A stretch of 64,000 nt of DNA from a bacterium (GTDB lineage Bacteria; Patescibacteriota; Minisyncoccia; Phycocordibacterales; UBA2100). The notes beneath the pieces were generated by a model that was not told where the DNA came from, did not search any database, and was given only the letters and a program-made list of their open reading frames with translations. Positions 16,467-50,050 of the stretch are shown here, piece by piece. The DNA lies in NCBI GenBank assembly GCA_030674455.1, contig JAUSGQ010000029.1, positions 6,625 to 70,624 of the forward strand, given 5' to 3'. The position numbers and the translations under genes are program-made. Numbering within the stretch: the first letter of the stretch is position 1; every line of letters starts with the position of its first letter.

Positions 16467-16572
16467 CATTGCGAGGAATGAGGAGGAACGACGACTTACG
16501 AAGCAATCCAGGGTATCAGAATCAGAACTCCTGGATTGCTTCCCGCCACGCTATGCTCGCGGTCGCAATGAC
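16467..16572 (+). ncRNA. Repeated structured intergenic element (nested stems gtcattgcga/tcgcaatgac and aagcaatccagg/cctggattgctt); copy 1 of 2; function unknown
   Basis: 75-nt core gaagcaat.cagggtat...agaactcctggattgcttcccgccacgctatgctcgcggtcgcaatgac repeated at 49973-50050. A C-to-T change gives a G-U wobble on the + strand. Confidence 0.35.
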
Positions 16573-16607
16573 AGGTAATAATTAGACATACGATGTCTAA
16601 CTTTGAT

Positions 16608-17651
16608 TTAGCGGTTTAGGCTTTTGAGCACTTTCAGATACAGTTTCTCGACGATTTCCTCTTGCGCTTTGCCCGTCTTTACATAATGGTCGAGGCCGGG
16701 CGCTGCGTTAATCTCCAGAATCCAGTAGTTCTTTGGCGGGTCAGAAATTATACCGTTTATCATCAGGTCTACGCCGCAGAGCCGGAGGCCCATGTCGCGG
16801 GTCAGCTTCACCGCGATCTTCTTGAACGCGGGATGAATCGTTGATGTAACGTCTACCGAATCCCCGCCAGTCGAGAGGTTTGCGTTATCTAAGAGAAAGA
16901 TTTGTTGGCCTTTTTTGGGAATCGAGCGCAAGCTCAATTTCTGACTCTTCAGCTTATTTGCTATGCGCGGGTCTTTGAATTTGATACGAGTGTCACGTTT
17001 CAATGCGTCAAAGGAGTGCTGCTTCTTTTTTAGCAATTGCAGAATTGTTGCCTTTCCATCGCCAACGACATTGAGCGGTATCCGTTCGTAGGCCGAAATG
17101 ATTGTCTTATCAAGAACAACGATGCGGTAATCCCGCCCGCTCACGGGTTTTTGCACGATGGCCACTTTGTCATTTCGGAATATGAGCTTCATCGCGCGAA
17201 AAAACTCGCGCTGATTGTGGACAAGGGCGACACCAACTCCTTGGCTGCCGCTATTTGGTTTTACGATAACCGGGAACCCAATCTTTTTTGCGTAACTCAA
17301 AGCCGCTTTTATGTCGCGTCGCGAGCCGATTGCCTCGCACCATTCTTGCGAAAAGAAAGTCTTGCCGCGCACTGCCGGATATCCCATGTGGCGCATGAAA
17401 AATGCCGCGTAATCTTTGTCCTTGGAAATATCCGAGGCGCCGACGGGGTTTAAATCAAGCGTATTGTAACGAAAGTATCTGTTATGGCCATCCTTGCCTG
17501 CCCGGCCAGGGCCTACCCGGCCAGGGTAGCGGATTTGGCCGGCGATTCTCCATTCCGGTTCTAGCACTACGCGCGCGCCAACTCTTGGCGCAAGGCGCTT
17601 CAGTATATTTGCAAGGATTAAATGTTCAGATTTGTACTTCACGCAGCGCAT
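16608..17651 (-). CDS. ATP-grasp family ligase (RimK / cyanophycin-synthetase-like)
   Basis: 'GFPVIVKPNSGSQGVGVALV...YRIVVLD...YWILEINAAPGLDHY' ATP-grasp signatures. Confidence 0.6.
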   Translation of the reverse strand: MRCVKYKSEHLILANILKRLAPRVGARVVLEPEWRIAGQIRYPGRVGPGRAGKDGHNRYFRYNTLDLNPVGASDISKDKDYAAFFMRHMGYPAVRGKTFFSQEWCEAIGSRRDIKAALSYAKKIGFPVIVKPNSGSQGVGVALVHNQREFFRAMKLIFRNDKVAIVQKPVSGRDYRIVVLDKTIISAYERIPLNVVGDGKATILQLLKKKQHSFDALKRDTRIKFKDPRIANKLKSQKLSLRSIPKKGQQIFLLDNANLSTGGDSVDVTSTIHPAFKKIAVKLTRDMGLRLCGVDLMINGIISDPPKNYWILEINAAPGLDHYVKTGKAQEEIVEKLYLKVLKSLNR

Positions 17652-17695
17652 ACTGCCAGAGTTGACCGTCTATTTCAATGGTAGTATGGTGAGGC

Positions 17696-20600
17696 ATGAC
17701 GCATCGGATTTCCGTCACTTCAAACATTCCCGACTCACGCGCACAAAATTACCTCCGCACATTGCGCGAACTTTTTCCTAAAAGCGGCCTCTCGGCCGCC
17801 TCTCTGTTGCAGGTTTACACAATAGACGCCGATTTGTCGGCGAGCGAACTGCGCGAGGCGGCGGAGCGGCTCACGAATCCCATCACGGAGCGTTTTTCAA
17901 CAACACAGATTCCCGCGCCGGATTCATATTCATGCGCGATCGAGATCGGATTCCTCGCCGGCGTTACCGACAACGTGGGCCACACGGCGCGGCAGACGAT
18001 AGAAGATTGCATAGGCAGAGAATTTGCTGAAGGCGAAAGCGTCTATTCTTCCTACATTCTTTTTCTCACGGGCGAGATAACATCGGAGATCGCGCAGAGC
18101 ATGGCTCGCGAGCTCTACAACCCGCTTATTGAGCGTGCGACCGTTTTCTCGGGCGTCCAAAAAGATTTTCCCATTGTAGTACCCAAAGTGAAATTGGCCA
18201 GCTCCGAAGCGTCCGTGGCTGAAGTTAATCTTAATGTGGATGCGGCGGAACTCGAAAAGCTGGGCAAGGAGGGAATCAAGGATTCCTCGGGCGTGCGCCG
18301 CGGGCCACTTTCACTCTCATTGAAACAATTGCAGGTTATACAAAATCATTTCTCAAAGCGTAAACGGAATCCCACTGACATTGAATTGGAATCACTGGCG
18401 CAGACGTGGTCGGAACATTGCAAGCACACGATTTTTGCAGACCCGCTGGATGAAATCAAAGAGGGAATTTATCGAAAATATATAAAGGGAGCGACGGGAA
18501 AAATAAGAAAAGAGAAGGCGAAAAAGCCCGTTAGAGGCACGGCCTCTAACGGGCCAGGGGATTTTTGCGTTTCGGTGTTTACGGATAATTCCGGAGCGAT
18601 CGCATTTGACGATAGATATTTGGTAACTCACAAAGTAGAGACGCACAATTCGCCCTCGGCGCTTGACCCCTTCGGCGGTTCCGTGACGGCTATTGTGGGA
18701 GTAAACCGAGACACGCTTGGGTTCGGGCTCGGCGCAAAACCGATAGTGAATGTATACGGATTTTGCGTTGCTGACCCGAACGATACGACTGCATTGTATC
18801 GGTATTCGGAAAGAAAACAGCCGCTCTTGCCCGCGCGAAGAATTCTTGAAGGAGTGGTTCGAGGGATTAATGCCGGAGGAAATCAGAGCGGAATCCCCAC
18901 GGCTCTCGGATTCCTCGCAGTTGACCCGAGTTATCGCGGCAAGCCCTTAATTTACGGGGGGACCATCGGCCTCATACCCCGTAAAAGCCCTTCGGGCTCA
19001 CGGGGCAGGCCCCGGAAACTATATGAAAAACGTGCTCAAGCAGGAGATTACATCGTTATGGTCGGTGGGCGAGTGGGAGCGGACGGCATTCACGGCGCGA
19101 CGTTTTCCTCCGAATCGCTTTCCAGCGGTTCACCGGCTACAGCAGTACAAATTGGCGACCCCATCACGCAAAAGAAACTCTCGGACGCGATTATCCGCGA
19201 AGCGAGAGACGCCGGATTGTATTCAAGCATTACCGACAACGGAGCGGGAGGGCTTTCCGGTGCTGTTGGTGAAATGGCAAAAGAATCGGGCGGGCCTTCG
19301 CCTCGCCGTAGCGGGCTTCGGCCTCGCGAAGGCGGGTGCATTGTCGACTTGTCGACCGTGCCGCTCAAGTATCCGGGACTCGCGCCATGGCAGATTTGGC
19401 TTTCGGAATCGCAGGAGCGCATGACGCTTGCTGTCCCGAAAAAGAACTGGACAGCTCTCAAAAAGATTTTCGACAGGCACAATGTTGAGGCGACGCGAAT
19501 AGGCACGTTCACGAATTCCGGAAGGTGTATTGTGAAATTTGGAAAGGAAAAAGTCATGGACATGGAAATGTCGTTCTTGCACGACGGCCGTCCCATCGAA
19601 GTTCAGAAAAGCAAAAAGCCCGCGCGCGTGAACAGCGAGCCGCCTGCGGCGGCTCGTTCCAGCGACCTTAGCGAATCGCTTCTCAAGATGCTCGCTCGTC
19701 CGAATATCGGTTCAATATCGTTTATTTCAGAACAGTACGACCACGAAGTGCAGGGCTCATCCGTCACAAAACCACTCGAAGGAAAGGGAAGAGTGAACGC
19801 GGATTCTGCCGTTTTGCAGCCATTGCCCGATACGAACCGCGGCATCGTCTTGGCGCACGGCTATTGCCCGTGGTATTCCGGCATCGACACATACGCGATG
19901 GCGGCGGCATCCATTGATACCGCCATACGCAACGCCGTGTGTGCGGGTGCTTCGCGCGATTACCTGGCAATTCTCGACAACTTCTGCTGGTCCAGCTCGA
20001 ACACGCCGGAGAGATTGTATGAACTCAAAGAATCGGCGCGCGCGTGTTTTGACATAGCGACGGCGTACGGGACGCCGTTCATCTCCGGCAAAGATTCGAT
20101 GTTTAACGATTTTCGCGGATTCACCGAAGACGGCAAAAAAATCCAAATATCCGCACAGCCAACGCTTCTCATCTCCGCTCTCGGCGTCATTCCGGATGTT
20201 ACAAAAGCGATGACGATTGATTTCAAACAAGCAGGCGACTTAATTTATCTTGTTGGAGAAACGAACGATGAACTCGGCGCATCTGAATATTTTGCGATGT
20301 TGGGAGAGGAAAAAGGGAATTTAGTTCCAATTGTTGATGCAAAGAAAAATGCCAGAATCTATGACGCACTCTCTCGCGCCATAAGCGGAAAAGGACATAC
20401 TCACATACTTGAGAATGTAAGGATGTTTGGCTGCGTGGCGTCGGCGATTAGCCTGGGGCGGGGAGGGCTTGGCGTAGCGCTCGCAAAGAGTTGTGTTGCC
20501 GGACAGCTTGGAGCGAGCGTCAATTTGAAGAATATACCGGGCGACGCAAAACAAGACGATTCCATTTTGTTTTCTGAAAGCCAGGGCAGGGTTTTAGTTT

Positions 20601-20776
20601 CCGTACGCGCCGGACACGAGAAAGAGTTCGAGAACATCGTACGCAAACTTCCATTCGTGAAAATAGGCACAACGACGGATAATTCAAATCTCACGCTTTC
20701 CATCGGGCGTCAATATGCCGATATATCGGTATATGAGCTTACGCAGGCTTATAAATCATTTTTTAAGAATTGGTAA
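17696..20776 (+). CDS. purL: Phosphoribosylformylglycinamidine synthase PurL with N-terminal extension (PurS/N-domain-like)
   Basis: 'LAQTWSEHCKHTIFADPLDEI', AIR-synthase-related repeats. Followed by purQ. Confidence 0.85.
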   Translation: MTHRISVTSNIPDSRAQNYLRTLRELFPKSGLSAASLLQVYTIDADLSASELREAAERLTNPITERFSTTQIPAPDSYSCAIEIGFLAGVTDNVGHTARQTIEDCIGREFAEGESVYSSYILFLTGEITSEIAQSMARELYNPLIERATVFSGVQKDFPIVVPKVKLASSEASVAEVNLNVDAAELEKLGKEGIKDSSGVRRGPLSLSLKQLQVIQNHFSKRKRNPTDIELESLAQTWSEHCKHTIFADPLDEIKEGIYRKYIKGATGKIRKEKAKKPVRGTASNGPGDFCVSVFTDNSGAIAFDDRYLVTHKVETHNSPSALDPFGGSVTAIVGVNRDTLGFGLGAKPIVNVYGFCVADPNDTTALYRYSERKQPLLPARRILEGVVRGINAGGNQSGIPTALGFLAVDPSYRGKPLIYGGTIGLIPRKSPSGSRGRPRKLYEKRAQAGDYIVMVGGRVGADGIHGATFSSESLSSGSPATAVQIGDPITQKKLSDAIIREARDAGLYSSITDNGAGGLSGAVGEMAKESGGPSPRRSGLRPREGGCIVDLSTVPLKYPGLAPWQIWLSESQERMTLAVPKKNWTALKKIFDRHNVEATRIGTFTNSGRCIVKFGKEKVMDMEMSFLHDGRPIEVQKSKKPARVNSEPPAAARSSDLSESLLKMLARPNIGSISFISEQYDHEVQGSSVTKPLEGKGRVNADSAVLQPLPDTNRGIVLAHGYCPWYSGIDTYAMAAASIDTAIRNAVCAGASRDYLAILDNFCWSSSNTPERLYELKESARACFDIATAYGTPFISGKDSMFNDFRGFTEDGKKIQISAQPTLLISALGVIPDVTKAMTIDFKQAGDLIYLVGETNDELGASEYFAMLGEEKGNLVPIVDAKKNARIYDALSRAISGKGHTHILENVRMFGCVASAISLGRGGLGVALAKSCVAGQLGASVNLKNIPGDAKQDDSILFSESQGRVLVSVRAGHEKEFENIVRKLPFVKIGTTTDNSNLTLSIGRQYADISVYELTQAYKSFFKNW

Positions 20777-21303
20777 TTATGTTTTCGCAGGAAAATGAGT
20801 CTAATAAAGAGCGCGTTATACCAGACCTGGTTGTTCAAACAGCAGCTTCTCCTGGAGAAAGTTATAAGATATGTGCAGATTTTATAGAAAAGATGCGCAC
20901 AAGATATCCAAAAAGAAATTATCTATTGAAAGGAATCATAGACAATCTCGACCCAGATAAACATCCGAGGACGCCGATTTCATATTTCGGTAAAGTTAAA
21001 GAAGAAATCGTGGGAATAATTGTAGGAGAAAAAGAAGGCGATGTGTTTAATGGTTATATTTTCCTTGTAGATCAGAAATATCAAAACACAAATGTTGCCG
21101 TGTCTCTTATGAGATCCCTTCAAGCAGACGAATCTACCATTAAACTGGTGCCAGCTCCTATTGGCATGCGTAAATATACCTCTCCAGAACAAAGAGAACA
21201 TCTAACACGCGCTCTCGAGCGATATTACAAGAGATTTGGATTCGTTCCTTCATCAAATCATACAATGGTTTGGCACAGAGGAAATCCGAAGAAAAACGTA
21301 TGA
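20770..21303 (+). CDS. Hypothetical protein, possibly GNAT-like acetyltransferase, inserted between purL and purQ
   Basis: AT-rich ORF by eye. Weak GNAT-like C-terminal 'YYKRFGFVP'. Overlaps both neighbours. Confidence 0.35.
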   Translation: MVIMFSQENESNKERVIPDLVVQTAASPGESYKICADFIEKMRTRYPKRNYLLKGIIDNLDPDKHPRTPISYFGKVKEEIVGIIVGEKEGDVFNGYIFLVDQKYQNTNVAVSLMRSLQADESTIKLVPAPIGMRKYTSPEQREHLTRALERYYKRFGFVPSSNHTMVWHRGNPKKNV

Positions 21304-22100
21304 AGAAACCTCAAGTCATAATATTTTCCGGTTACGGACTGAATACGGAGGACGAAACGAAAACCGCTTTTGAGATGGCGGGTGCTACTGCTGATATCGT
21401 GCACATCAACGACATCATCGCTCGCCCGGCAATTTTGAAGAAAGCACAAATTATTGTTTTTCCGGGAGGATTTTCTTATGGCGATGACACCGGCTCGGGC
21501 AAGGCGTATGGCAATCGCTTGAAACATCACCTCGGCAAAGAACTCGAGGAGTTCCTTTCGCGCGACACGCTTATGCTCGGTATTTGCAACGGATTTCAAA
21601 TAATTACGAGCGCGGGCATTTTACCGGGGGCGCTGATCGCCAACGACCCGACTCCGCAAGACGGAGGACGGGCAGGTTCTGCGCGCTACATTTGCAGATG
21701 GGTGGACCTCGAAATAAAAGGAGAAAGCCCGTGGCTCAAAGGAATCAAGACTATTTCAGTTCCTATCGCGCATGGGGAGGGAAAATATTATGTGCCAAAA
21801 GAAACACTCGAAAAGATAAAAAGCGAGGGGGCGATAGCGTTACAGTACTTTGGAGGTGAAACCTCCAAGCACCTAAATCTCCCGGCGAATCCGAACGGCT
21901 CGCTGGAAAATATTGCAGGCATCACCGGCTATGGAGGCCGCGTCTTAGGGCTCATGCCGCATCCCGAGCGCGCGGTTAGGTTCACACAGCTTCCGCACTG
22001 GACATATCTTCGCGAATCATATATACGCCAAGGGGCGCCCTTGCCACAGGAGGGGCCAGGACTGCAAATCTTCAAGAATGCGGTGCGATATTTCGATTAG
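21300..22100 (+). CDS. purQ: Phosphoribosylformylglycinamidine synthase glutaminase subunit
   Basis: 'MKKPQVIIFSGYGLNTEDETKTAFEMAG...LGICNGFQI...HGEGK' class-I GATase PurQ. Confidence 0.85.
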   Translation: MKKPQVIIFSGYGLNTEDETKTAFEMAGATADIVHINDIIARPAILKKAQIIVFPGGFSYGDDTGSGKAYGNRLKHHLGKELEEFLSRDTLMLGICNGFQIITSAGILPGALIANDPTPQDGGRAGSARYICRWVDLEIKGESPWLKGIKTISVPIAHGEGKYYVPKETLEKIKSEGAIALQYFGGETSKHLNLPANPNGSLENIAGITGYGGRVLGLMPHPERAVRFTQLPHWTYLRESYIRQGAPLPQEGPGLQIFKNAVRYFD

Positions 22101-22221
22101 TTTCAATTTGTGTAAGGAAAAAGCGTGATAGAGTTCTAAAGGATTATAGGATTACATGAAGTGTTCCCTAGGCCGCAAGCCTAACGGAATGGGCCAGAAA
22201 GCCCCATGATCCTTATGGTCC

Positions 22222-22893: not shown

Positions 22894-23011
22894 GCCGCTC
22901 GTAGGACGATGACGCCGCTCATCGCATCACGAGCGGCTTCATCTTTTACGACTAAATTGACTTATTAATTGGACGTTGAGAACTTCACTCTTTTAATGCT
23001 AAAATGCATTC

Positions 23012-23539
23012 ATGAATTCTGCTACTGGCTCACCTCTCGTCGGAATCATCATGGGCTCGGATTCGGATTTGCCAGTGATGAAAGACGCGGCGGAGATTCT
23101 CAAGGAATTTGGACTCGAAAGCGAAGTGAAGGTTCTCTCTGCTCATCGAACGCCTGACCAAGCTATTGAATACGCCAAGACTGCAGAGACAAACGGACTC
23201 AAAGTAATTATTGCTGGCGCCGGAGGCGCCGCACACTTGGCGGGAGTTACGGCGGGGAACACGGTTCTTCCCGTTATCGGTGTTCCGATTTCCACTAAAG
23301 CGCTCAAAGGCATAGATTCGCTCCTTTCGACTGCGCAGATGCCGCCTGGAGTTCCCGTTGCGACCGTAGCTATCAATGGCGCAAAGAATGCCGGCATCCT
23401 CGCGGCGCAAATTATCGCGGAAGGGAATCCGGAACTGCGGGAGAAATTGCGCTCATACAAAAAGAAAATGGAAAAGGACGTATTGGCAAAAACGGAAAAG
23501 TTGGCAGACATAGGATACGAAGCGTATCTCAATCAATGA
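23012..23539 (+). CDS. purE: N5-carboxyaminoimidazole ribonucleotide mutase
   Basis: '[15 protein letters not shown]...[11 protein letters not shown]...[15 protein letters not shown]' PurE motifs. Confidence 0.9.
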
Positions 23540-27158: not shown

Positions 27159-27194
27159 ATCTACTTGCTTATTCGCGCGAATAAGCAAGTAGAT
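27159..27194. promoter_or_regulatory. 36-nt perfect palindrome atctacttgcttattcgcgcgaataagcaagtagat, 15 nt upstream of the ArsR-type regulator gene. Candidate operator or mobile hairpin
   Basis: Perfect dyad symmetry. The same core recurs at 27504-27539 and 16105-16134 with compensatory outer-arm changes. Confidence 0.6.
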
Positions 27195-27208
27195 GATACA
27201 ATGAGCAG

Positions 27209-27503: not shown

Positions 27504-27539
27504 CAATACTTGCTTATTCGCGCGAATAAGCAAGTATTG
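27504..27539. repeat. 36-nt perfect palindrome caatacttgcttattcgcgcgaataagcaagtattg, 3' of the ArsR-type regulator gene
   Basis: Seen in sequence. Confidence 0.9.
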
Positions 27540-27600
27540 AGAATATGAAGAAGAAGGAATGATGAATAAAAGTGATGAAGAAAACAGACTTTCAGTTAAT

Positions 27601-35949: not shown

Positions 35950-36115
35950 TTGCAACGTGCGTTTCGGTTGCCGATGTTCTGGCCTACGCGAATGGAAACA
36001 GTAAAGGCACAGACGGTCAAACAAAATGAGTGCATAACTATTGAGATAATCAAAGTTTTCTTCAGAATTGAGAAGGCGTCCAGTTTGTGTTATGTATATG
36101 GCAGCGGACGAGACG
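35950..36115. repeat. About 165-bp direct repeat, copy 1 (about 85-90 % identical to 37025-37190), flanking the IS200-like element
   Basis: Seen in sequence. Confidence 0.8.
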
Positions 36116-36180
36116 TTATTTTTTTTGGTGAGTCCATTAAAGAGGAGAGCAGCGTGCATATTTTATTCGCGGGGAAAAGG

Positions 36181-36247
36181 GAAAAGGTGTCAGGAATCTT
36201 TTGTTGGAAAAGAAAAGGCAAGAAAAGGTGTCAGGAACCTTTTGTTG
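36181..36247. repeat. Left terminal repeats of the IS200-like element: two tandem hairpins gaaaaggtgtcagga(a/t)c(c/t)ttttgttg
   Basis: Inverted copies (cctgacaccttttc x3) lie at 36927-36990. Confidence 0.8.
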
Positions 36248-36265
36248 ATATGGTATAGTACACAA

Positions 36266-36940
36266 ATGGGAAGAGCGCTTCGTACTGATGTCGGAGGTTA
36301 TGTGTACCATGTATTAAATCGAGCGAACGCTCGCTCGACGATATTCAGGACAAAGGCAGATTACGAGTTGTTTGAAAAGGTGCTTGAAGAGGCCAAGGAA
36401 TTAATCGGCATGAGAATTCTTGCGTACTGCATCATGCCAAATCACTGGCATCTCGTGCTGTATCCCAAGAGTGATGGCGATTTGTCGAAGTTTGTTAATT
36501 GGCTGACGTTAACGCACACCCAACGCTGGCATGCCGCACATAATACGATTGGACACGGCCACTTGTATCAAGGGCGATACAAATCATTTCTGTGCGAGGA
36601 TGATGTTCACTTTATTCATCTCGTGCGATATGTGGAGCGTAATGCTTTACGAGCCAATCTTGCGCCTCGGGCAGAGGATTGGCGATGGGGAAGTGCGTGG
36701 CGACGGATTAACGGTACCGCGAAGCAGAAAGAATTGCTCGGTTCATGGCCGGTGCATATGCCGCAACGATATGTTGAACTCTTGAATCATCCGCAATCGG
36801 AGGAAGAAGTTAATGCGATGCGGCGGGCAGTTACCCGTGGCAATCCGTATGGTTCAGACGAATGGATAGAAAGGATGATAAAGAAGTTCCGTCTCGAAAC
36901 AACGGTTCGTTCGAGGGGCAGACCAAGAAAAGGTTCCTGA
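36266..36940 (+). mobile_element. IS200/IS605-type Y1 (HUH) transposase
   Basis: 'YHVLNRAN...RILAYCIMPNHWHLVL...HLYQGRYKSF...YVERNALRANL'. Start taken at MGRALRTD; the ORF-track start at 36068 reads through the flanking repeats. Confidence 0.8.
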
Positions 36941-38113: not shown

Positions 38114-38146
38114 GGGAATTCCGAAGGAGAAACTGGGAGTGGCTCT

Positions 38147-38704
38147 TTAAGGTCGCACCTTGAAATTCCGCCAAGAGTCCTTAAGAAAGGTCAGCACAAG
38201 GGTTGCCAGAAGGGTTGCAAGCCACACGATGCCCGTTATCAATAGAAAGTCATTGATTCGGTTCTCCGTTTCTTTTAATGAGCGTCCCACCGCGACAAAT
38301 CCGTCCGAATAGGGAAGTACAACAAGCGCGAACCTGGCATTCGACTCGGGTTGCCATGTTATTAGATTCTCGCCGCGCTCGTTTGCATATTGCAAAACGC
38401 CTTCCGGAAGAATGGGCGCTGTGCCATTCAGTTGTCCTGTTGAGGCGATCGGCTTATATGCGGAATTGTAAATGACAAGAAATGGCGCGGAACTCTCCTT
38501 AATGTTCACGATATTTGCGGTAGCAAAATCAGCGGGCGTCTTTCCGCTCTCGAGTATTCTCACGGCATCTTTGGCGATCTGTATCTGCGGCTCGTTGGCC
38601 GACTGGCGCAAGCTCTGCTGGGCAAGAAGATAGGCGAGCCCGCACACGCCGGTTACAGCAACGGAAAGCAGAAGCCAGTATTGCAGATATGAGAGTTGCT
38701 TCAT
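38147..38704 (-). CDS. Hypothetical membrane protein (N- and C-terminal TM helices)
   Basis: ORF only. Confidence 0.4.
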   Translation of the reverse strand: MKQLSYLQYWLLLSVAVTGVCGLAYLLAQQSLRQSANEPQIQIAKDAVRILESGKTPADFATANIVNIKESSAPFLVIYNSAYKPIASTGQLNGTAPILPEGVLQYANERGENLITWQPESNARFALVVLPYSDGFVAVGRSLKETENRINDFLLITGIVWLATLLATLVLTFLKDSWRNFKVRP

Positions 38705-38985
38705 GGTGCAATTCTAGCATTTTCTTGGAAAGCCCGAGGAGACACCTCCCCCTTCCCATCCTTCGCCAAGGCTTCGGAGGGCGCCGTGGGTGAGGAGTCA
38801 CCTCGGAAACTTCGGAATCCTACAAGGTGCGACCTTAAAGAGCGACTCCCAAGGTCGCACCTTGGGTGCCACCAAATCAAGGACTCCCCTTGATTTTTGG
38901 GTTATCCACACCTTATGGCGGTTCACCTTGCATTCATGCTAGGATATGCTATAATTATATTAATTACGAGCTAAATTAATATAAT

Positions 38986-42339: not shown

Positions 42340-42878
42340 TCACACTTGCCGTTTATTAATGAAATCGATCAGGGACTCGCTAAAGCTCCTAGCAATTTCT
42401 TCCCGCGTCGGGTGTATTTCCAGAATTGATGCGTCCGGAGGTTCTGCAATGGACTTCGATTCGAGGTAAGGCATCCATTTAGTGAAGTGCGTACGGCCGC
42501 CATTTTTTACATTTACAAATGCGGTAATTCCGATACTTGATAATTTCTCGGCCCGAAATGGACTCGCTCCTTTTTCAGGCTGGATACATGCGAACTGTAC
42601 CCTGAAATTCTCAACATGCGGCTGCAGTTCGCCGAGATTCTCAAAAACTTCTTTGCAGGCGCTACCTATCTCATTTTTGAAGTCGCTAGTAACGAGTTTT
42701 GAGTCTGATGAAAGTCTAAAATCCACCAACTCTTTAGTGATTTTCTCTTGGGTAGGAAACTTGCCGAAGAAGCGCATACGCCAATTAAACATCATCACAT
42801 AACGATGCACAATCAGTGCGCTGGGATTTGCACATCTGTGTCTGTCGGATAAGCCATCCATACAGTACAATCTGCTCA
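42340..42878 (-). CDS. Hypothetical protein (start MSRLYCMDG). Divergent from the dehydrogenase gene, with back-to-back start codons
   Basis: ORF. The longer track ORF (to 43020) would overlap the divergent gene. Confidence 0.4.
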
Positions 42879-43879
42879 TGAAGATACTGGTTTTTAGTGT
42901 TGATGAGGAGGTTCGCTCGATTCTTGGGCCAGCGCTTACGGAACACACGGTTGTATATATTGATGACATAGTTTCCGCCAAAGCTCTCGCTGAACATTCT
43001 GATGCCGATGCGGTTTCCATATTTACGACTTCCGAATTTAAGAAAGCTCAAATAGATGCTCTGCCGAAACTGAAATGCATTTCCACGCGGTCGACAGGGG
43101 TCGACCACATTGATGTTGCGTACGCTAAGGAAAAGGGAATTACTGTGTGCAATGTGCCGAGGTACGGAGCAGTAACCGTCGCGGAATTTACCTTCGCGCT
43201 GATGCTTACGCTTTCCCGCAGGATTTTTGAGGCATTTCATCAGGTGCGCGAAGAGGGAAGTTTCAAGACAGCTTCTCTTGAAGGCTTCAATCTTTTCGGG
43301 AAGACATTGGGTGTTGTCGGCACCGGCAGCATAGGGCGCAATGTCGTCAGAATTGCGAAAGGTTTTGGACTGAACGTTCTCATGTTCGACCCTCGACAGG
43401 ATAAATCTCTTGAAAGCGAGCAGTCGAAATACGTTTCGTTTGATGAACTGCTCGCGGGTTCCGACATCGTGACACTCCATGTTCCATACACGAAAGAAAA
43501 TCACTATCTACTGAACAAAGAAGCATTTGCAAAAATCAAACGCGGCGCATTCGTCATCAATACAGCGCGCGGAGAGCTGATTGACACGGAAGCGCTCTTG
43601 GACGCGCTCAAGAGCGGACAGGTTGCTGGAGCGGGATTGGACGTCTTGGAGGAAGAGCGGGTTCTCAAGGATGAAATCGAATTGGTGAAGGGAATAGAAT
43701 CAATGAATGAATTGAAAATCCTCATTCGCGACCACGCGCTCATTGATATGCCGCGCGTCGTCATTACGCCGCACATCGCGTTCTTTTCGCGCGAGGCGTA
43801 TCACGAAATTTTGGAAGTAACGGCATCGAACATCACGAGTTTTGCGGCAGGCAAGGCGACGAACGTTGTTACGTCATGA
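42878..43879 (+). CDS. D-isomer-specific 2-hydroxyacid dehydrogenase (glycerate/hydroxypyruvate or lactate dehydrogenase family)
   Basis: NAD-binding 'LGVVGTGSIGRNV', catalytic-domain layout. Confidence 0.8.
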   Translation: MKILVFSVDEEVRSILGPALTEHTVVYIDDIVSAKALAEHSDADAVSIFTTSEFKKAQIDALPKLKCISTRSTGVDHIDVAYAKEKGITVCNVPRYGAVTVAEFTFALMLTLSRRIFEAFHQVREEGSFKTASLEGFNLFGKTLGVVGTGSIGRNVVRIAKGFGLNVLMFDPRQDKSLESEQSKYVSFDELLAGSDIVTLHVPYTKENHYLLNKEAFAKIKRGAFVINTARGELIDTEALLDALKSGQVAGAGLDVLEEERVLKDEIELVKGIESMNELKILIRDHALIDMPRVVITPHIAFFSREAYHEILEVTASNITSFAAGKATNVVTS

Positions 43880-43944
43880 ACGAACCCAAGGAGAGACCTT
43901 AAAGAATCACTCCCAAGGTCTCACCTTGGGTACAACTCATTATT

Positions 43945-45204: not shown

Positions 45205-45280
45205 TGTTTAACAAATCTTTACCGCATCAGTTCCCGAGGAGACACCTTGCAGAGCCAAGGAGTCACCTCGGGAACCAGCA

Positions 45281-46507
45281 ATGAGTTCTATGCAGAAAAT
45301 TACAGACATAATCGCGCGGGAGGCGGCAGATTCGCGCGGACGTCCCACTCTTTCTGTAACGGTAGTAGCGGGAGAAGGCACCGGTACATTTGACGTACCG
45401 TCCGGCGCATCAACCGGCTCGCTTGAGGCGTGCGAACTGCGCGATGTGGGCGGCGGCGTGTCGCGCGCCATAGACAATGTGAATTCGCTTATCAAACGCG
45501 AGATTGTCGGAATGGATTTACACGACCAATCGAAAATCGATGCGAAAATTATCGCGCTCGACGGCACAGTCAATAAATCGAAACTTGGAGGCAATGCCAC
45601 GATAGGCGTTTCGATTGCCCTGGCCAAAGCGGCGGCGAAGGCGGAAAACATCGAGCCGTTCGAGTATTTGCGCCAGCTGGCAAGCATTAAACCTTCCCGA
45701 AAAGTTCCCTATCTATATTTGAATTACATCAATGGCGGAAAACATGCGAAATCGCCCATAGCGTTTCAGGAACACATGCTTGTGCCTGATACTGAATCAG
45801 TTACGGAAGCGCTTGAGATGGCAAAAATCCTTGAGAAATCTTTGTACGAAATTGTTGCTAAAAAATACGGTGCGGAAGTTGCCGCAGAAGTGGGCGACGA
45901 GGGCGGCTATGTGCTACCGAATGGCACATACGAGACACCGTTTGAATTATCAGAGCAGGCGATCAATGAATCCGGTTTTGGCGGCAAATGCTTTATCGCG
46001 GCGGACATCGCGGCATCTTCTTTTTTCGAGAACGGTTCATACGTCATGCAGGGCAAGTCATACTCCGCCGATGAATTACGGGAAATATATGTATCGCTCA
46101 CGAAGAAGTTTCCCATTCTTTCTATTGAAGACCCGTTCTTTGAGGAATCGTTCGAAGATTTTGCAAAACTGCAAAAGCAAACGGATGTACGGATTGTCGG
46201 CGACGACCTGACGGTGACTAACAAGAGCTTGCTCACGCGCGCAATTGGCATGGGCAGTATCCGCTCGGTAATAATCAAGCCGAATCAGATAGGGACTCTT
46301 TCGGAAACGCTCGATACCATGCACGAGGCTCGCTTGCGCGATGTGGACTGTATTGTGAGCCACCGCAGCGGCGAGACCAACGACGACTTTATCGCGGACC
46401 TCGCGTTTGCGTTCGGCTGTTTCGGTTTAAAGACCGGCTCACTGCGTAAACCTGAACGCGTAATCAAATACAAACGATTAGAGAAGATCAGTTTGATGGG
46501 GGAGTAA
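45281..46507 (+). CDS. eno: Enolase
   Basis: 'ARE..DSRGRPT..V', 'SHRSGETND' enolase signatures. Confidence 0.85.
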   Translation: MSSMQKITDIIAREAADSRGRPTLSVTVVAGEGTGTFDVPSGASTGSLEACELRDVGGGVSRAIDNVNSLIKREIVGMDLHDQSKIDAKIIALDGTVNKSKLGGNATIGVSIALAKAAAKAENIEPFEYLRQLASIKPSRKVPYLYLNYINGGKHAKSPIAFQEHMLVPDTESVTEALEMAKILEKSLYEIVAKKYGAEVAAEVGDEGGYVLPNGTYETPFELSEQAINESGFGGKCFIAADIAASSFFENGSYVMQGKSYSADELREIYVSLTKKFPILSIEDPFFEESFEDFAKLQKQTDVRIVGDDLTVTNKSLLTRAIGMGSIRSVIIKPNQIGTLSETLDTMHEARLRDVDCIVSHRSGETNDDFIADLAFAFGCFGLKTGSLRKPERVIKYKRLEKISLMGE

Positions 46508-46512
46508 ATAGT

Positions 46513-47316
46513 ATGGGCAGGCAATCCCGTTCGCAAATAGTAGTAACCGTCGGACCTGCAAGCACCGATGTCTCTACAATTCTGCGGATGATAGCCGGAG
46601 GAATGGATGTCGCGCGGATTAATTTTTCTCACGGCACGCATGAATCCAACGGAGGACACATACAGAATATTCGCGAGGCGGCGAAAAAGGCGGGTAAGAC
46701 AATTCCGATAATCCAAGACTTGGCCGGTCCGCGGATGAAGACGGACGTTGGACACGCATTTAATTCGAAAGAAACTGAAATAGTCACGCAGAAGGACATT
46801 TCGGACCTTGATTTTGGCATCAAGGAAGGCGTCGAATACATAGCGCAATCATACGTTGGCACGGCAGAGGATATTCGCACCTTGCGAAGAGCGATACAAG
46901 AGCGTGGAGCAAAGATTCACATCGTCGCGAAAATCGAGCGGAGGGAAGCTGTGGAGAATTTTGATGCAATTTTAGAGGAGGCTGATGCGATTATGGTCGC
47001 TCGAGGTGATTTGGGATTAAATGTGCCGATAGAGGAGATTCCATTTCTGGAAAAAGAAATGGTGGGGAAAGCAAAGAAAGCAGGGAAGCCCGTCATCGTT
47101 GCGACGGAAATGATGTACTCGATGGTGGAGAGCAATCGGCCGACGCGAGCCGAGGTAACGGACATTGCCTACGCGATTCTCATCGGTTCCGACGCCGTTA
47201 TGCTCTCCGATGAAACGGCGCGGGGTAAACATCCGGTTGAGGCAGTGGAAATAATGGAGAAAATTGTGTCGCGCTCTGAAGTTACCGCTAAAACCGGAAG
47301 CATCAATTCACTGTGA
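46513..47316 (+). CDS. pyk: Pyruvate kinase, minimal form (267 aa; A-domain barrel only, no B or C-terminal domains)
   Basis: 'IVVTVGPAS...MDVARINFSHG', 'IVAKIERREAVEN', 'MVARGDLG' PK motifs. Stop codon is 2 nt before the RAYT hairpin. Confidence 0.75.
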   Translation: MGRQSRSQIVVTVGPASTDVSTILRMIAGGMDVARINFSHGTHESNGGHIQNIREAAKKAGKTIPIIQDLAGPRMKTDVGHAFNSKETEIVTQKDISDLDFGIKEGVEYIAQSYVGTAEDIRTLRRAIQERGAKIHIVAKIERREAVENFDAILEEADAIMVARGDLGLNVPIEEIPFLEKEMVGKAKKAGKPVIVATEMMYSMVESNRPTRAEVTDIAYAILIGSDAVMLSDETARGKHPVEAVEIMEKIVSRSEVTAKTGSINSL

Positions 47317-47317
47317 G

Positions 47318-47336
47318 ATTGAGATGACATCTCAAT
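47318..47336. repeat. 19-nt perfect hairpin attgagatg-a-catctcaat, 5' flank of the RAYT gene
   Basis: Identical copy at 48055-48073. Confidence 0.9.
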
Positions 47337-47367
47337 GGTTTTGCGAGTCTATGATAGACTTTTAGCC

Positions 47368-48042
47368 ATGACTCGTCGTCATGAATTTTCTGTCGATGAA
47401 TGGTATCACTGCTTCAATCGCGGAGTTGATAAGCGGATTGTGTTTGAGAACGAACAGGATGCCTCTCGTTTTCTCATCATCCTATACCTTGCAAACGGAA
47501 CCGAGCCAATGCAAATCTTTAACACGGACAAGCCAACGTTTGCCAAAGCCCTTGAGGAATATCGCGGCAAACCTATCGTTTCGCTTGGCGCATACTGCTT
47601 GATGCCAAATCACTTTCATTTACTTCTCAAGGAGATAATAGAAGGTGGTATAAGCGAATTTATGAGAAAACTCGGGATAGCATACACGATGTATTTTAAT
47701 GCAAAAAATCAGCGTGTTGGGAATCTATTTATTAGGCCGTTCCGGTCGCGTCATGTACGCGATGACAGTTATTTCCAAAGAGTTCTGCAATATATACATT
47801 GCAATCCTGCTGAATTGTATGAACCAGGTTGGAAATTGGGTAAAGTTAAAGACGTCCGGTTATTGGAGAAAAAACTTATCGAATATCCATACTCCAGCCT
47901 TCAAAGTTATGCAAAAGCGGGGGCATCAAACCCGATTCTTTCAGGTGAAGGACTTGAGATTGCGGATCAGTTACCGCTATCACAAATGCTCGACGAAGCA
48001 CAGGCCTATTATTCTGATGTTGCAGGGAGTCTTTTGCGGTAA
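47368..48042 (+). mobile_element. IS200/IS605-type Y1 transposase (RAYT-like); paralog of 9033..9740
   Basis: 'FSVDEWYHCFNRG...LMPNHFHLLLKEI...YIHCNPAE'. Confidence 0.8.
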
Positions 48043-48054
48043 ATTGCAAAATCC

Positions 48055-48073
48055 ATTGAGATGACATCTCAAT
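48055..48073. repeat. Second copy of the 19-nt hairpin, 3' flank of the RAYT gene
   Basis: Seen in sequence. Confidence 0.9.
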
Positions 48074-48194
48074 ATTCGTCTCGTACAAACACTTGCGTTG
48101 TTTGAGGACATGTGGTATATCTACGGCCGGAGATGGCATAGATTTAGCCATTTTGAGCCGTTATTAAGCCATATTTTAATCAATTTATAAACAT

Positions 48195-49907
48195 ATGTAT
48201 CGAGTTTACATTTCGAGTTTAATCGCCGCGTTGGGCATCATAAGCCCCGCAATCGCCCTTTCGCAGAGCTATTCATATCCCTACATGACGGCAACCGGCT
48301 GTGTCAGCCTTTCGCGCGATTTAACCGTCGGGTCGCGAAGCTCCGATGTGACATCTCTCCAGAATTTCCTTCTCACGCAGAATTATCCCGGCTCCGGTGC
48401 CTGGATGGTGACCGGTTATTTCGGTTCCGCGACACGTCAGGCAGTTCTCAACTTCCAATCGCAGAGAGGCCTTGCCGGAACCGGCATTGCTGATGCGCAG
48501 ACGCGCGCCGCAATCTCGGTTTCCACGTGCAGCGGCAACTACGGTTCATACGTTTACAATTCGGCATACTATGCTCCGGTACCGACTGTCGCACCAACAT
48601 ACACATACCCGAACACCACGAATGTTCTCATCAATTTGCTCTCGGTAACGTCAGGCCCGGTAGGAACATCAGTGACGATTTACGGAAACGGTTTTGATGC
48701 CGCCTACAATAATGTGTACTTCGGCAACACTCCCGTCTCCGGCAACATCGCTTCCAACGGAAGCTCGCTCACGTTTACCGTACCAACATCGTTCACTTCA
48801 AATTGCACCGGATACGGATGCACTATCTACAACAGGTACACAAATCCGGGCGTTTACCAGATTTACGTAACCAACACCAGAGGAACGAGCAACAGCCTTC
48901 CGTTCACTGTTACGGCCGGTGGAGTTGCCGGATGCCCGTGGTATATAAACTTTGGAAATTGCGGAAGCTGGAATGGCGGTGCCTATTGGAACGCGAACGT
49001 AAACAGCTTGTATCCGACATCGGGCGGAGTCGGCACGTCTGTTACGGTTTTCGGCTCAGGATTTTCGCAGAGAGGCAACTCCGTGCATTTTGGTCCGGGC
49101 GTGATAACGAACCTGACATCTTCGGATGGCACATCGCTTTCATTCACCGTTCCATCCCAGTTCACGGGCTACGGCTCTCAATCCATGGCGGTAGGAACGT
49201 ATAACGTTTCCGTCACTAACGACAGAGGGTCAACAAGCAACTCGCTTCCTTTCACAGTTACTTCTATAGAACAAAACACGCTTCCCCCGACGATTACCAG
49301 CGTAAACGGGCCCACGCGGATTGCAGCCGGTGCGGCGGGAGTATGGAGCATTACGCTCAGCAGCTATGGAGCATCTAACATAACTACATCTGTGAGATGG
49401 GGCGATGAAGGTACCTATGGTATACCGGTAGCCGCAACTTCTCAAACAGTTACATCCGCAACATCGCAGACTCTCACGTTTACTCACACGTATCAGACAG
49501 GAGGTGTCTACATGGCAGTGTTCACCGTTACAGACAACGCGGGCAGACAAAACACCGCGTCTGCGACAGTGATCGTTACTCCTTACGGCTCATCCCAGCT
49601 CGCGCTTTCGAATGTCACACCTGCGACCGGCAGAGTTGGTACACTCGTAACGATTACGGGAACAGGTTTTACGCTTTCGGGTAACACCGTGCATTTTGGA
49701 ACAGGGGGCGCTTCAAATCTGACATCTTCAAACAACGGAACGACGCTCTACTTTACGATTCCGGCGTACCTTTCTCCTTGCGATGTAGTGGCACAAGGAA
49801 ATATGTGCCCTCAATATATCCAGCAGGTAACGCCCGGCTCATATCCGATATACGTGAGCAACGCCGCAGGACAGACAGGAACCCTCTACTTTACGGTTAC
49901 TCAATAA
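48195..49907 (+). CDS. Secreted protein with peptidoglycan-binding-like domain and multiple IPT/TIG-like Ig-fold repeats
   Basis: Signal peptide. 'SDVTSLQNFLLTQNY...GYFGSATRQAVLNFQSQRGLAGTGIADAQTRAAI' (PG_binding_1-like). Repeated 'TSGPVGTSVTIYGNGF...' units. Confidence 0.65.
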   Translation: MYRVYISSLIAALGIISPAIALSQSYSYPYMTATGCVSLSRDLTVGSRSSDVTSLQNFLLTQNYPGSGAWMVTGYFGSATRQAVLNFQSQRGLAGTGIADAQTRAAISVSTCSGNYGSYVYNSAYYAPVPTVAPTYTYPNTTNVLINLLSVTSGPVGTSVTIYGNGFDAAYNNVYFGNTPVSGNIASNGSSLTFTVPTSFTSNCTGYGCTIYNRYTNPGVYQIYVTNTRGTSNSLPFTVTAGGVAGCPWYINFGNCGSWNGGAYWNANVNSLYPTSGGVGTSVTVFGSGFSQRGNSVHFGPGVITNLTSSDGTSLSFTVPSQFTGYGSQSMAVGTYNVSVTNDRGSTSNSLPFTVTSIEQNTLPPTITSVNGPTRIAAGAAGVWSITLSSYGASNITTSVRWGDEGTYGIPVAATSQTVTSATSQTLTFTHTYQTGGVYMAVFTVTDNAGRQNTASATVIVTPYGSSQLALSNVTPATGRVGTLVTITGTGFTLSGNTVHFGTGGASNLTSSNNGTTLYFTIPAYLSPCDVVAQGNMCPQYIQQVTPGSYPIYVSNAAGQTGTLYFTVTQ

Positions 49908-49918
49908 TTGAATAGATA

Positions 49919-49956
49919 GAAAAGCGCGCAAAGTGCCAATGCACTTTGCGCGCTTT
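49919..49956 (+). terminator. Rho-independent terminator (aaaagcgcgcaaagtgc-caat-gcactttgcgcgctttt)
   Basis: Seen in sequence. Confidence 0.8.
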
Positions 49957-49972
49957 TGGCGTTTGCCATGTC

Positions 49973-50050
49973 GAAGCAATTCAGGGTATACGTGCCAGAA
50001 CTCCTGGATTGCTTCCCGCCACGCTATGCTCGCGGTCGCAATGACTGGGT
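49973..50050 (+). ncRNA. Repeated structured intergenic element; copy 2 of 2
   Basis: Matches the 16497-16572 core. Confidence 0.35.

Follow-up and report, generated by a model that had tools for sequence, protein, structure and literature searches.

Two intergenic repeats in a Kaiserbacteria contig as probable head-outside dimers of a CGTC-tagged palindromic DNA repeat

The window analysed here, a 64,000-nucleotide stretch of DNA from a member of the Kaiserbacteria (candidate phyla radiation, CPR), carries two copies of an element that are probably head-outside (HH) dimers of a short palindromic DNA repeat, belonging to the class of CGTC-tagged REPs that includes NTS and Ssn-related motifs. 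Judged by its sequence, the arm from which these dimers are built, here called ATTGC-type, is a subtype outside the published SRM motif and outside the four CGTC families as the published survey text describes them.

Results

Two copies of one element

The original prediction proposed two related copies of an element with nested stems, and this part of it holds. Regions 16499-16575 and 49972-50048, of 77 nt each, align with 91% identity, and the 43-nt right part, CCTGGATTGCTTCCCGCCACGCTATGCTCGCGGTCGCAATGAC, shows no difference between 16530-16572 and 50003-50045, an identity for which the chance expectation was 0 in 100 shuffles. In full, the copies extend over 16464-16573 and 49960-50046 (Table 1). 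Both of the proposed stems are real: the inner one pairs GAAGCAATCCAGG with CCTGGATTGCTTC, and the outer one, present in copy 1 only, pairs GTCATTGCGA (16465-16474) with TCGCAATGAC (16563-16572). The central loop also differs between the copies, as had been claimed, and in each it forms a 21-nt spacer within the HH layout. Both copies are intergenic, copy 1 lying between the convergent folA (15859-16431, + strand) and an ATP-grasp gene (16608-17651, - strand), and copy 2 lying between the terminator-like hairpin (49920-49957) of an IPT/TIG protein gene and the start of an MFS gene at 50074.

Copy 1 is intact, and copy 2 consists of one intact and one decayed arm. The outer arm of copy 2 is not simply absent; a decayed left arm is retained at 49960-49983 (cgtttgcca-tgtc-gaagcaatTc), the head of which differs from CGTCATTGCGA by a 2-nt deletion and a G-to-C change, and the C-to-T substitution at 49981 stands opposite G50007. 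The RNA fold predicted for copy 1 reaches -47.8 kcal/mol on the + strand and -50.1 kcal/mol on the - strand (z scores against shuffles in Table 1), and that of copy 2 has no clear gain over shuffles on either strand (z -2.0 and -1.5). The element is a DNA palindrome, of which the + and - strands fold equally well.

A covariance model, R1, was trained only on metagenome arms from ssn-containing loci, with the window excluded. When applied to the window it found exactly three arms, namely the left arm of copy 1 (16464-16512, 35.7 bits, E 6.5e-6), the right arm of copy 1 (16530-16573, - strand, 26.6 bits, E 6.8e-4) and the right arm of copy 2 (50003-50046, - strand, 24.1 bits, E 2.5e-3). Nothing else in the window was significant, the next match having an E value of 5.7, and the decayed left arm of copy 2 gave no R1 match even at E <= 10.

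Table 1. Features of the two element copies in the window
Feature	Positions	Strand	Basis
Copy 1, probable complete HH dimer of two ATTGC-type CGTC-tagged REP arms	16464..16573		Sequence; fold z -5.1 (+) / -6.5 (-); both arms detected by R1
Copy 1 left arm: CGTC tag (16464-16467), ATTGC stem, GA, spacer, GAA, GCAAT stem, CCA tail	16464..16510	+	R1
Copy 1 left-arm spacer (P2) GGAATGAGGAGGAACGACGACTTAC, unusually long, includes GGAGGAACGAC	16475..16499	+	GGAGGAACGAC also a spacer of Ssn-flanking arms
Copy 1 central spacer between the two tails; sequence not the same in copy 2	16511..16531		Alignment
Copy 1 right arm, reading TGTC-ATTGC-GA-(20-mer)-GAA-GCAAT-CCA	16532..16573	-	R1
Copy 1 nested 20-nt module CCGCCACGCTATGCTCGCGG at the right-arm spacer position	16543..16562		Same 20-mer in distant phyla
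Copy 2 decayed left arm: head cgtttgcca, spacer cut to tgtc, box GAAGCAATTC with C-to-T at 49981	49960..49983	+	Sequence
Copy 2 central spacer	49984..50004		Sequence, alignment
Copy 2 intact right arm, reading AGTC-ATTGC-GA-(20-mer)-GAA-GCAAT-CCA	50005..50046	-	R1; equals copy 1 right arm
Copy 2 nested 20-nt module CCGCCACGCTATGCTCGCGG	50016..50035		Identity to copy 1

Anatomy of the arm

Across the family, the arm comprises a (C/T)GTC tag, a 5-bp ATTGC/GCAAT stem beginning with an A-T pair, a purine-rich internal loop with GA on one side and GAA on the other, a variable mini-hairpin and a CCA tail. The base preceding GTC is T in 215 arms, C in 149, G in 17 and A in 11; in the window the tag is CGTC in the left and TGTC in the right arm of copy 1, and the atypical AGTC in the right arm of copy 2. 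The apparent loop, i.e., GA, the nested hairpin and GAA together, measures 12 nt in its canonical form, 12-30 nt overall and 25-30 nt in the window arms. The spacers of the window arms, at 25 and 20 nt, exceed most spacers of the family, and it is possible that their length might hamper recognition. Both GGAGGAACGAC and AGGAGGAACGACT serve as spacers in metagenome arms. Full HH dimers were found 72 times elsewhere, with lengths of 66-94 nt.

The arm stem is 99.3% paired and shows compensatory changes at three of its five pairs, a result reached by 0 of 500 shuffles. Of 241 distinct spacers, 78 are perfect hairpins (shuffles, 10.5 +/- 2.6), with 46 different stems. This pattern of covariation indicates that the arm hairpin is under selection. 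The covariation expected by the original prediction is real; however, because it supports a hairpin within each half of the element, it cannot separate folding as single-stranded DNA (ssDNA) from folding as RNA.

Distribution

Further copies, for which a search had been suggested, were found in number: the family is present in at least 120 viral contigs and at least 120 metagenome loci, and in plasmids of Novosphingobium, Methylosinus and Methylobacterium. Relatives in which the neighbouring proteins are 78% identical are without copy 1 and carry an element at a different site; the elements are dispersed and not orthologous. The 20-mer CCGCCACGCTATGCTCGCGG is identical here, in Kaiserbacteria, and within elements of Saccharibacteria, Melainabacteria, Betaproteobacteria, Syntrophaceae and Acetobacteraceae contigs, among others; in the bolder model discussed below, it would be one example of a module exchanged through the spacer slot.

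Association with Ssn nuclease genes

At the level of the family, the arms bracket a gene for a nuclease of about 95 aa with a single GIY-YIG domain. In Flavobacterium beibuense, dimers of the form GTCATTGCGA...GAAGCAATCT lie on either side of ssn (locus L152, 1503-1797), the product of which is 100% identical to protein P0121 of the same species. Metagenomes were scanned for the motif TAYNNNGGNGTNAC with an arm 60-90 nt upstream, which retrieved at least 120 loci; tblastn (E < 1e-5) recognised an Ssn homologue in at least 115 of these, and at least 112 have a pattern match that overlaps the homologue, with the arm upstream. The upstream association is partly built into this search pattern, and the independent evidence consists of the Flavobacterium locus, the downstream arms and the contrast in density. 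Among the matches listed, arms occur within 400 nt downstream in 88 of the 97 loci with enough sequence, the commonest layout being a + arm, ssn and an inverted - arm, and arm density is 3.74 per kb downstream vs. 0.122 per kb elsewhere in the same loci, a 31-fold enrichment. When Ssn loci were chosen by protein only, (C/T)GTCAT repeats were present in 39 of 42. Controls behaved as published: ssnA of N. gonorrhoeae was surrounded by NTS, and the GIY-YIG genes of N. aromaticivorans and of locus L048 were flanked by CGTC REPs. A Planktothrix gene, also used as a control, lies between arms of the same format with compensated stems.

The proteins encoded between the arms can be aligned with N. gonorrhoeae SsnA, and all five sequences of the alignment share invariant residues of the GIY-YIG family. 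The GIY-YIG Pfam domain was confirmed in the L048 protein; for homologues of the L152 protein the GIY-YIG assignment is a precomputed PF01541 database listing, so that the assignment stands at Pfam level, the class named in the SRM study being cd10448. Among the matches listed, each of the 115 flanked genes had its nearest counterpart in the Planktothrix, Flavobacterium or Neisseria type, and in no case was this the alphaproteobacterial Ssn type that is flanked by CGTC-3; on this basis the ATTGC-type subtype goes with an Ssn branch of its own. The window itself contains no Ssn homologue (hmmsearch, best E 0.43), and among the matches listed no locus with both ssn and arms is assignable to Kaiserbacteria or another CPR lineage.

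Discussion

Relation to known repeats

SsnA binds and cuts the forward NTS as ssDNA only, being inactive on dsDNA, on the reverse strand and on RNA, and forward-only ssDNA binding and cleavage have been demonstrated for Neisseria and Wolbachia homologues, each with its own repeats (PMC11893778). In Neisseria, the pair of SsnA and NTS modulates recombination of incoming ssDNA. The ATTGC-type arm shares with NTS (CGTCATTCCCGCGMAVGCGGGAATCYRG) and SRM repeats the head CGTCAT(T) and the tail (A)ATCCAG, a hairpin whose unpaired tag gives it an orientation, dispersed intergenic copies and, at family level, a nuclease gene bracketed by repeats with their tags outward. However, NTS forms one continuous stem of 8-9 bp, whereas the ATTGC-type arm has a 5-bp stem, the GA/GAA loop and a nested variable mini-hairpin. 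The SRM search sequence, HGTCWYN(0-2)YYVSBRHN(0-5)WNVSBRGN(0-2)RNCYNB (Chenal et al., 2025, Nat Commun, PMC11893778), matched the NTS control, zero ATTGC-type arms and zero sites in the window. Kaiserbacteria, the host lineage here, go unmentioned in the main text of that study.

The text of the survey by Di Nocera, De Gregorio and Rocco (2013, PMC3733652) describes CGTC-1 to CGTC-4 REPs as having 8-9 bp stems and 4-5 nt loops, with units mostly arranged as intergenic HH dimers, tags outside and 20-100 bp apart. By that description, the elements here have the features of the CGTC superfamily: a terminal tag (CGTC, with TGTC and CCTC as variants), HH dimers, intergenic location and, in all three intact arms, ATTGC...GCAAT followed by CCA. 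Further likenesses are the stem that starts with A-T/T-A, and the predominance of HH dimers, often heterodimers with different loops, that follow ORFs. CGTC-3 is the closest family, e.g., CGTCATTGCCGGGCTTGACCCGGCAATCCA in locus L153, and some of its units share the outer stem letters ATTGC/GCAAT. The 5-bp stem nonetheless departs from the size range of families 1-4, and it is by the text description of those families that the ATTGC-type is set apart. Because neither the SRM expression nor these stem and loop sizes accommodate the arms, they would appear to be a novel variant. Neisseria dRS3 and Rickettsia RPE-4 and RPE-6, placed in CGTC-1 and CGTC-4 in the survey text, belong to the common superfamily but differ in stem sequence (ATTCCCGCG...), and some RPEs lie in frame within genes whereas both copies here are intergenic. 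E. coli-type REP/BIME (GTAG-3) and REPIN/RAYT systems are likewise modular hairpins, in which non-complementary di- or trinucleotides separate the stem from an inner hairpin closed by GC, likewise form inverted doublets that fold as long hairpins, and are likewise non-autonomous repeats flanking the gene of a small nuclease specific for ssDNA hairpins. However, they combine a GTAG tag with an HUH/Y1 transposase, in place of CGTC and a GIY-YIG enzyme (Ssn).

Alternative explanations

The elements could have been exapted by the host for a role, in DNA or mRNA, that is independent of any nuclease, such as a transcript-end stabiliser, a terminator-like barrier, or a protein-binding or supercoiling site. 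Comparable roles have been proposed for REPs generally, and both copies adjoin the ends of genes, copy 1 having convergent genes on its two sides and copy 2 following a terminator. However, a T-tract is absent, half of copy 2 has decayed and the sites are not kept in relatives, and the occurrence of identical boxes in distant phyla argues for a common specific protein partner over a local function. As the principal explanation this is improbable, although it is compatible with a REP identity as a secondary role.

That the dimers are REPIN-like doublets moved in trans by a REP-associated tyrosine transposase (RAYT, Y1/HUH) is decidedly improbable as well. Such doublets have the layout seen here, the window contains at least three Y1_Tnp genes that match REP_Tyr_transpos better than IS200, and the text of Di Nocera et al. 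(PMC3733652) leaves open a mobilisation of CGTC repeats by RAYTs or other transposases. However, the three RAYT-like genes in the window each lie between copies of a palindrome that is private to the gene and has no relation to the element, a pattern also seen at a Saccharibacteria locus (L135), and 1.14 Mb of element-bearing viral loci contained no RAYT homologue. Further, the tag is CGTC instead of GTAG, the published survey text reports no RAYT flanked by CGTC repeats (PMC3733652), and it is beside ssn genes that the arms are strongly enriched.

A small structured or cis-acting RNA transcribed from the + strand, the main proposal of the original prediction, is very unlikely, and its alternative of REP-like elements is the one upheld by the tag, the A-T-first stem, the CCA tail, the HH layout and the R1 matches. 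The RNA reading could draw on the stable predicted fold of copy 1, on the hairpin covariation across the family and on the suggestion, in the text of Di Nocera et al. (PMC3733652), that many REPs, being downstream of ORFs, are transcribed and perhaps act as RNA hairpins. However, the element matched no Rfam family even at E <= 10, no promoter-like site beside and no terminator after either copy was found, the transcriptional context differs between the two copies, and the two strands do not differ in folding. Structured RNAs more typically carry GNRA or UNCG tetraloops. The mini-hairpins here are mostly capped by G/A-N-A triloops (e.g., GCGAAGC), and PMC13037366 describes GCGNAGC as the motif of an extraordinarily stable DNA mini-hairpin. 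RNA of the NTS sequence did not interact with SsnA (PMC11893778). Solo arms, in what is a crude test, showed no orientation bias towards flanking genes (14 vs. 13). Among 590 arms read in their own orientation, single-side stem transitions gave 11 G.T and 9 A.C, numbers so similar that there is no wobble bias. The C-to-T change in copy 2 does face a G, as had been predicted; its value as a G-U-compatible sign of RNA is lost, as it lies in a decayed half-element of a family without such bias. The change at 49981 falls on the C that immediately follows the palindrome, the position on which SsnA binding to the homologous Neisseria repeat depends most (PMC11893778), and decay accounts for it better than compensation.

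A classical MITE, i.e., a deletion derivative of a DDE-transposase IS with terminal inverted repeats and target-site duplications, is scarcely credible: the element is short, intergenic and dispersed and has terminal inverted repeats, but target-site duplications are absent (flank matches of the 72 full dimers equal those of mismatched controls), solo arms and same-orientation arrays are common (e.g., loci L074 and L009), and the gene between the arms encodes the GIY-YIG nuclease and no DDE transposase.

A model for the dimers

If the copies are dimers of a CGTC-tagged REP, a mechanism can be proposed by analogy with the known Ssn systems. Each arm, folded as a hairpin in ssDNA, would be a candidate site for binding by a cognate Ssn nuclease, and this enzyme may nick ssDNA a few bases 5' of the tag. 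As one forward arm stands at the 5' end of each strand of the dimer, cleavage would be expected immediately beyond each of the two dimer ends. The short dimers of the window would then represent the two ends of an ssn unit minus its gene, a non-autonomous derivative resembling a MITE or REPIN, and their activity would depend on the rest of the genome, since the 64 kb themselves encode no such nuclease. A bolder version, which we hold to be rather unlikely, is that ATTGC-type dimers are active non-autonomous mobile elements, with the ~95-aa Ssn in the role of a Y1 transposase and the spacer acting as a slot for exchanged or inserted hairpin modules. Were this so, elements of about 100 nt would travel frequently across phyla, reduced CPR genomes included.

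Implications

For the window, a candidate small RNA is removed and an identified class of repeat DNA takes its place. More broadly, the published SRM motif and the four CGTC families, as their text describes them, overlook a large cross-phylum subtype (at least 120 viral contigs and at least 120 metagenome loci) with a nested, covarying mini-hairpin. As the repeat occurs in Kaiserbacteria and Saccharibacteria, one may ask whether CPR bacteria encode the nuclease themselves, or whether they have no more than remnants of the repeat or copies imported from elsewhere. Ssn enzymes are under development as site-specific ssDNA cutters, and the new repeat type together with a candidate enzyme, e.g., F. 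beibuense P0121, therefore offers a new specificity that is directly testable.

Results

The repeat occurs twice in the window, as the original prediction held: 16499-16575 and 49972-50048 align over 77 nt at 91% identity, and agree at every one of the 43 nt on the right, a match that 100 shuffles never produced. Both copies contain the inner stem GAAGCAATCCAGG/CCTGGATTGCTTC; the outer stem GTCATTGCGA/TCGCAATGAC is confined to copy 1 (16464-16573), which is flanked by the convergent folA and ATP-grasp genes and folds far better than shuffled sequence on either strand (z -5.1 and -6.5, equally good). Copy 2 (49960-50046), which follows the terminator-like hairpin of the gene for an IPT/TIG-PKD protein and precedes the gene for an MFS transporter, shows no such margin over shuffled sequence; its left half retains the head minus two bases and has lost almost all of its spacer. 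The C-to-T change at 49981 lies inside this damaged half, alters the C directly after the palindrome, and reads as decay.

The ATP-grasp protein next to copy 1, which is 100% identical to a MAG protein on an 87-kb contig, assigns the window to Candidatus Kaiserbacteria (Patescibacteria). In the closest retrievable relatives (ATP-grasp protein 78% identical, gene order alike), the position of copy 1 is occupied by an ArsR-type HTH gene, and a family element whose outer stem is compensated (GTCTTTGCGA/TCGCAAAGAC) lies elsewhere, in the CYTH-dCTP deaminase gap. By this sequence comparison, the element is neither orthologous nor site-conserved. The ArsR-family gene (88-94 aa) lies between the ATP-grasp gene and folA in loci L121 (4048-4476) and L122 (5006-5434); window 16432-16607 has lost it, with copy 1 in its place. 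The CYTH-dCTP deaminase gap of the window (14296-14420) holds an unrelated long palindrome with outer stem GTGACTTTCGGATATGG/CCATATCCGAAAGTCAC, and since L121 and L122 carry an ATTGC-type dimer there, the palindromic element in this one gap differs between related genomes.

Further copies were found outside the window in viral and proviral contigs, more than 120 of which match a two-box pattern of variable spacing (GGATTGCTTC-N0-30-TCGCAATGAC), and in plasmids, where BLAST matches came from Methylosinus, Methylobacterium and Novosphingobium, one replicon of the last having the element at 40 or more sites. Complete elements in the viral and proviral contigs read GTCATTGCGA-spacer-GAAGCAATCC-loop-GGATTGCTTC-spacer-TCGCAATGAC and have sharp ends, with C or T preceding the first G and G or A following the last C. 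Within an element the two spacers are mostly unlike and not mutually complementary, each being its own small hairpin, most commonly GCGAAGC with a free middle base (GCGNAGC). As arms also exist alone and in same-orientation arrays (contigs L074 and L009), the unit is the half-element, or arm, and the window elements are inverted arm pairs, in which a tag (CGTC, TGTC or AGTC) precedes ATTGC-GA-spacer-GAA-GCAAT-CCA. The arrays (L074 2300-2550 and 9940-10300; L009 3338-12744) are tandem, with units of ~75 nt in a single orientation, and their arms alternate with a second conserved segment, CCCTCAATGTAAGTACGGAGTAAC, without partner arms. They do not generalise, as solo arms showed no orientation bias in a crude test against crude gene calls. 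A literature search with sequence strings including GTCATTGCGAG returned unrelated primers only.

Across the family, 99.3% of cells in the 5-bp arm stem are paired, compensatory double changes affect three of its five pairs (ATTAC/GTAAT, ACTGC/GCAGT, ATCGC/GCGAT, ATTCC/GGAAT), and the closing pair of the spacer hairpin alternates between G-C and A-T; the observed covariation was reached by none of 500 shuffles. Perfect hairpins occur in 78 of 241 distinct spacers, as against 10.5 +/- 2.6 in shuffles; between them these hairpins use 46 stems, their loops are mostly GAA, GCA, AAA, GGA or GTA, and a further 61 spacers take the form G-GA-hairpin-GA-C. Stem covariation and structured spacers thus define the arm as a conserved hairpin whose tip varies in sequence but is itself structured. 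An odd 20-nt spacer, CCGCCACGCTATGCTCGCGG, sits in the right arms of the window (16543-16562 and 50016-50035); a 20-mer scan of genome contigs recovered it exactly inside elements of Saccharibacteria, Melainabacteria, Betaproteobacteria, Syntrophaceae and Acetobacteraceae, and it is identical in element spacers of at least six distant lineages (loci L125-L137). In Betaproteobacteria the module runs on as ...CTAAAGGC, and locus L231 carries a compensated variant, CCACGAGCATAGCGGGTGG, a distribution that suggests that small hairpin modules may be nested or exchanged within arms.

All four features that define CGTC-tagged REPs are found in the window arms. As described by Di Nocera et al. (2013, PMC3733652), such REPs bear an unpaired CGTC/TGTC tag at one end, an A-T-first stem and a CCA tail, and form mostly HH dimers (two inverted arms, tags outside) and often heterodimers; the same account places them chiefly in Alphaproteobacteria, in five phyla in all, without a dedicated transposase. 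The window arms differ from CGTC-1 to CGTC-4, which according to the text descriptions in that source have an 8-9 bp stem and a 4-5 nt loop, and fit neither measure. Neisseria dRS3 belongs to the CGTC class, as do the window arms, and its 28-nt extension, NTS (CGTCATTCCCGCGMAVGCGGGAATCYRG; Chenal et al., 2025, PMC11893778), matches those arms at head and tail. NTS is targeted by SsnA, a GIY-YIG nuclease with one domain and 94 aa, which binds the hairpin as ssDNA only, cuts a few nucleotides upstream, and is inactive on dsDNA, the reverse strand and RNA; in Neisseria its binding depends most on the C that follows the palindrome (PMC11893778). The ssn gene typically has the repeats on its flanks, and most Ssn homologues are bordered by "Ssn-related motifs" of their own (PMC11893778). 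Because the published degenerate sequence of these motifs does not match ATTGC-type arms, the link to Ssn was tested directly.

In an unbiased sample of 42 loci on viral contigs, whose Ssn homologues were chosen by protein alone, (C/T)GTCAT repeats adjoin the gene in 39, and ATTGC-type dimers lie on both sides of ssn in one (L152), the Ssn of which has the same sequence as a GIY-YIG protein of Flavobacterium beibuense (P0121). The Ssn gene of a Planktothrix plasmid is flanked by arms that share this format, their stems being compensated (TGTC-ATTCT-GAGTGAAACGA-AGAAT-CTC). A metagenome scan for an arm followed 60-90 nt on by the coding motif LYVGVT matched at least 120 loci; at least 115 hold an Ssn homologue, which the match overlaps in at least 112. 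Two results are independent of the scan pattern. Arms lie within 400 nt downstream of ssn in 88 of the 97 long-enough loci among the matches listed, mostly as a single inverted arm, and arm density is 3.74 per kb in this downstream stretch versus 0.122 per kb elsewhere in the same loci. The downstream inverted arms indicate a unit of the form arm - ssn - inverted arm, tags outside. Among the matches listed, each of the 115 flanked genes has its nearest counterpart in Planktothrix, Flavobacterium or Neisseria, and none has it among alphaproteobacterial Ssn with CGTC-3-type repeats. On a high-GC phage-like contig (L048 10595-10892), a GIY-YIG (Ssn-like) gene with CGTC-3-type flanking repeats and an apparent 1-nt frameshift was seen between portal and terminase genes.

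A covariance model, R1, built from 60 arms of ssn-containing metagenome loci with no window sequence among them, recovered three window arms (see table); the next match had E 5.7, and the left half of copy 2 went unrecognised. No ssn gene was found in the 64-kb window by regex, by an HMM from 125 Ssn proteins, or by tblastn with YhbQ-like sequences, which are weak probes. The variant GTCTTTGCGA, specific to the candidate phyla radiation (CPR), was never found upstream of ssn in viral contigs, window proteins have only distant matches in ssn-bearing metagenome loci, and none of the ssn-plus-arm loci among the matches listed is assignable to a CPR lineage.

Arms recovered by R1 and RAYT-like genes in the window
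Feature	Position	Strand	Score or flanking palindrome
Copy 1 left arm	16464-16512	+	R1, 35.7 bits, E 6.5e-6
Copy 1 right arm	16530-16573	-	R1, 26.6 bits, E 6.8e-4
Copy 2 right arm	50003-50046	-	R1, 24.1 bits, E 2.5e-3
Y1_Tnp (RAYT/IS200-like) gene	9033-9794	-	9030-9052/9764-9786, CCATCAAGGCGACGCCTTGATGG
Y1_Tnp (RAYT/IS200-like) gene	36068-36940	+	36181-36244/36927-36949, GAAAAGGTGTCAGGAACCTTTTC
Y1_Tnp (RAYT/IS200-like) gene	47335-48042	+	47318-47336/48055-48073, ATTGAGATGACATCTCAAT

Discussion

The original prediction saw in the repeat a possible small structured RNA. The compensatory changes expected of such an RNA do exist, but they cannot separate action as DNA from action as RNA, and this reading is not supported by the remaining evidence. 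Rfam returned no match at gathering thresholds or at E <= 10, the copies have neither a promoter nor a terminator of their own, the fold is equally good on either strand, and orientation relative to genes is unbiased (crude test). The G-U-compatible substitution taken as a sign of RNA falls in the decayed half of copy 2, and family arms show no wobble bias (11 G.T versus 9 A.C). Action of the arm as ssDNA is favoured on two points, since GCGNAGC is described as an extraordinarily stable DNA mini-hairpin (PMC13037366) and the characterised partner of the class is ssDNA-only.

A RAYT partner was also considered and rejected: each of at least three RAYT-like genes in the window has its own private flanking palindrome, their proteins had no tblastn match in 1.14 Mb of viral loci that carry the element, and the sole RAYT match, in the Saccharibacteria contig L135, lies 5.5 kb off the element with its own palindromes. 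A DDE-type MITE was rejected after a search for target-site duplications found none.

Short dispersed repeats are unusually dense in the window. Its three Y1_Tnp genes, in 64 kb of a small CPR genome, have perfect flanking palindromes, each absent from the rest of the window, and L135 (494-1087) shows the same design with GGAGGTTTAACCTCC on each side. Inverted repeats ~660-715 nt apart (38134-38851 and 42735-43506) bracket minus-strand ORFs of ~185-240 aa (38147-38704 and 42785-43504), which have no Pfam or NCBIfam match and could be divergent or decayed hairpin-bracketed units of the same kind. A perfect 30-nt palindrome, TAYTTGCTTATTCGCGCGAATAAGCAARTA, occurs three times (16105-16138, inside folA; 27162-27195; 27507-27540); the folA copy encodes YLLIRANKQI and looks like an old in-frame palindromic repeat, as the DHFR proteins of relatives conserve this peptide. 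Further repeat pairs of 55-145 nt at 83-90% identity (52779-52875/55016-55112, 35977-36121/37049-37195 and 11218-11353/37982-38112) include some rich in CTACAAATG or TTTGCAAAT motifs and one that flanks the region of the RAYT-like gene at 36068-36940.

Taken together, the sequence evidence identifies the two copies as dimers of putative Ssn-type CGTC REPs, belonging to a subtype that the motif definitions in print do not cover, an identification that would be of some value to researchers of REPs and of Ssn nucleases.
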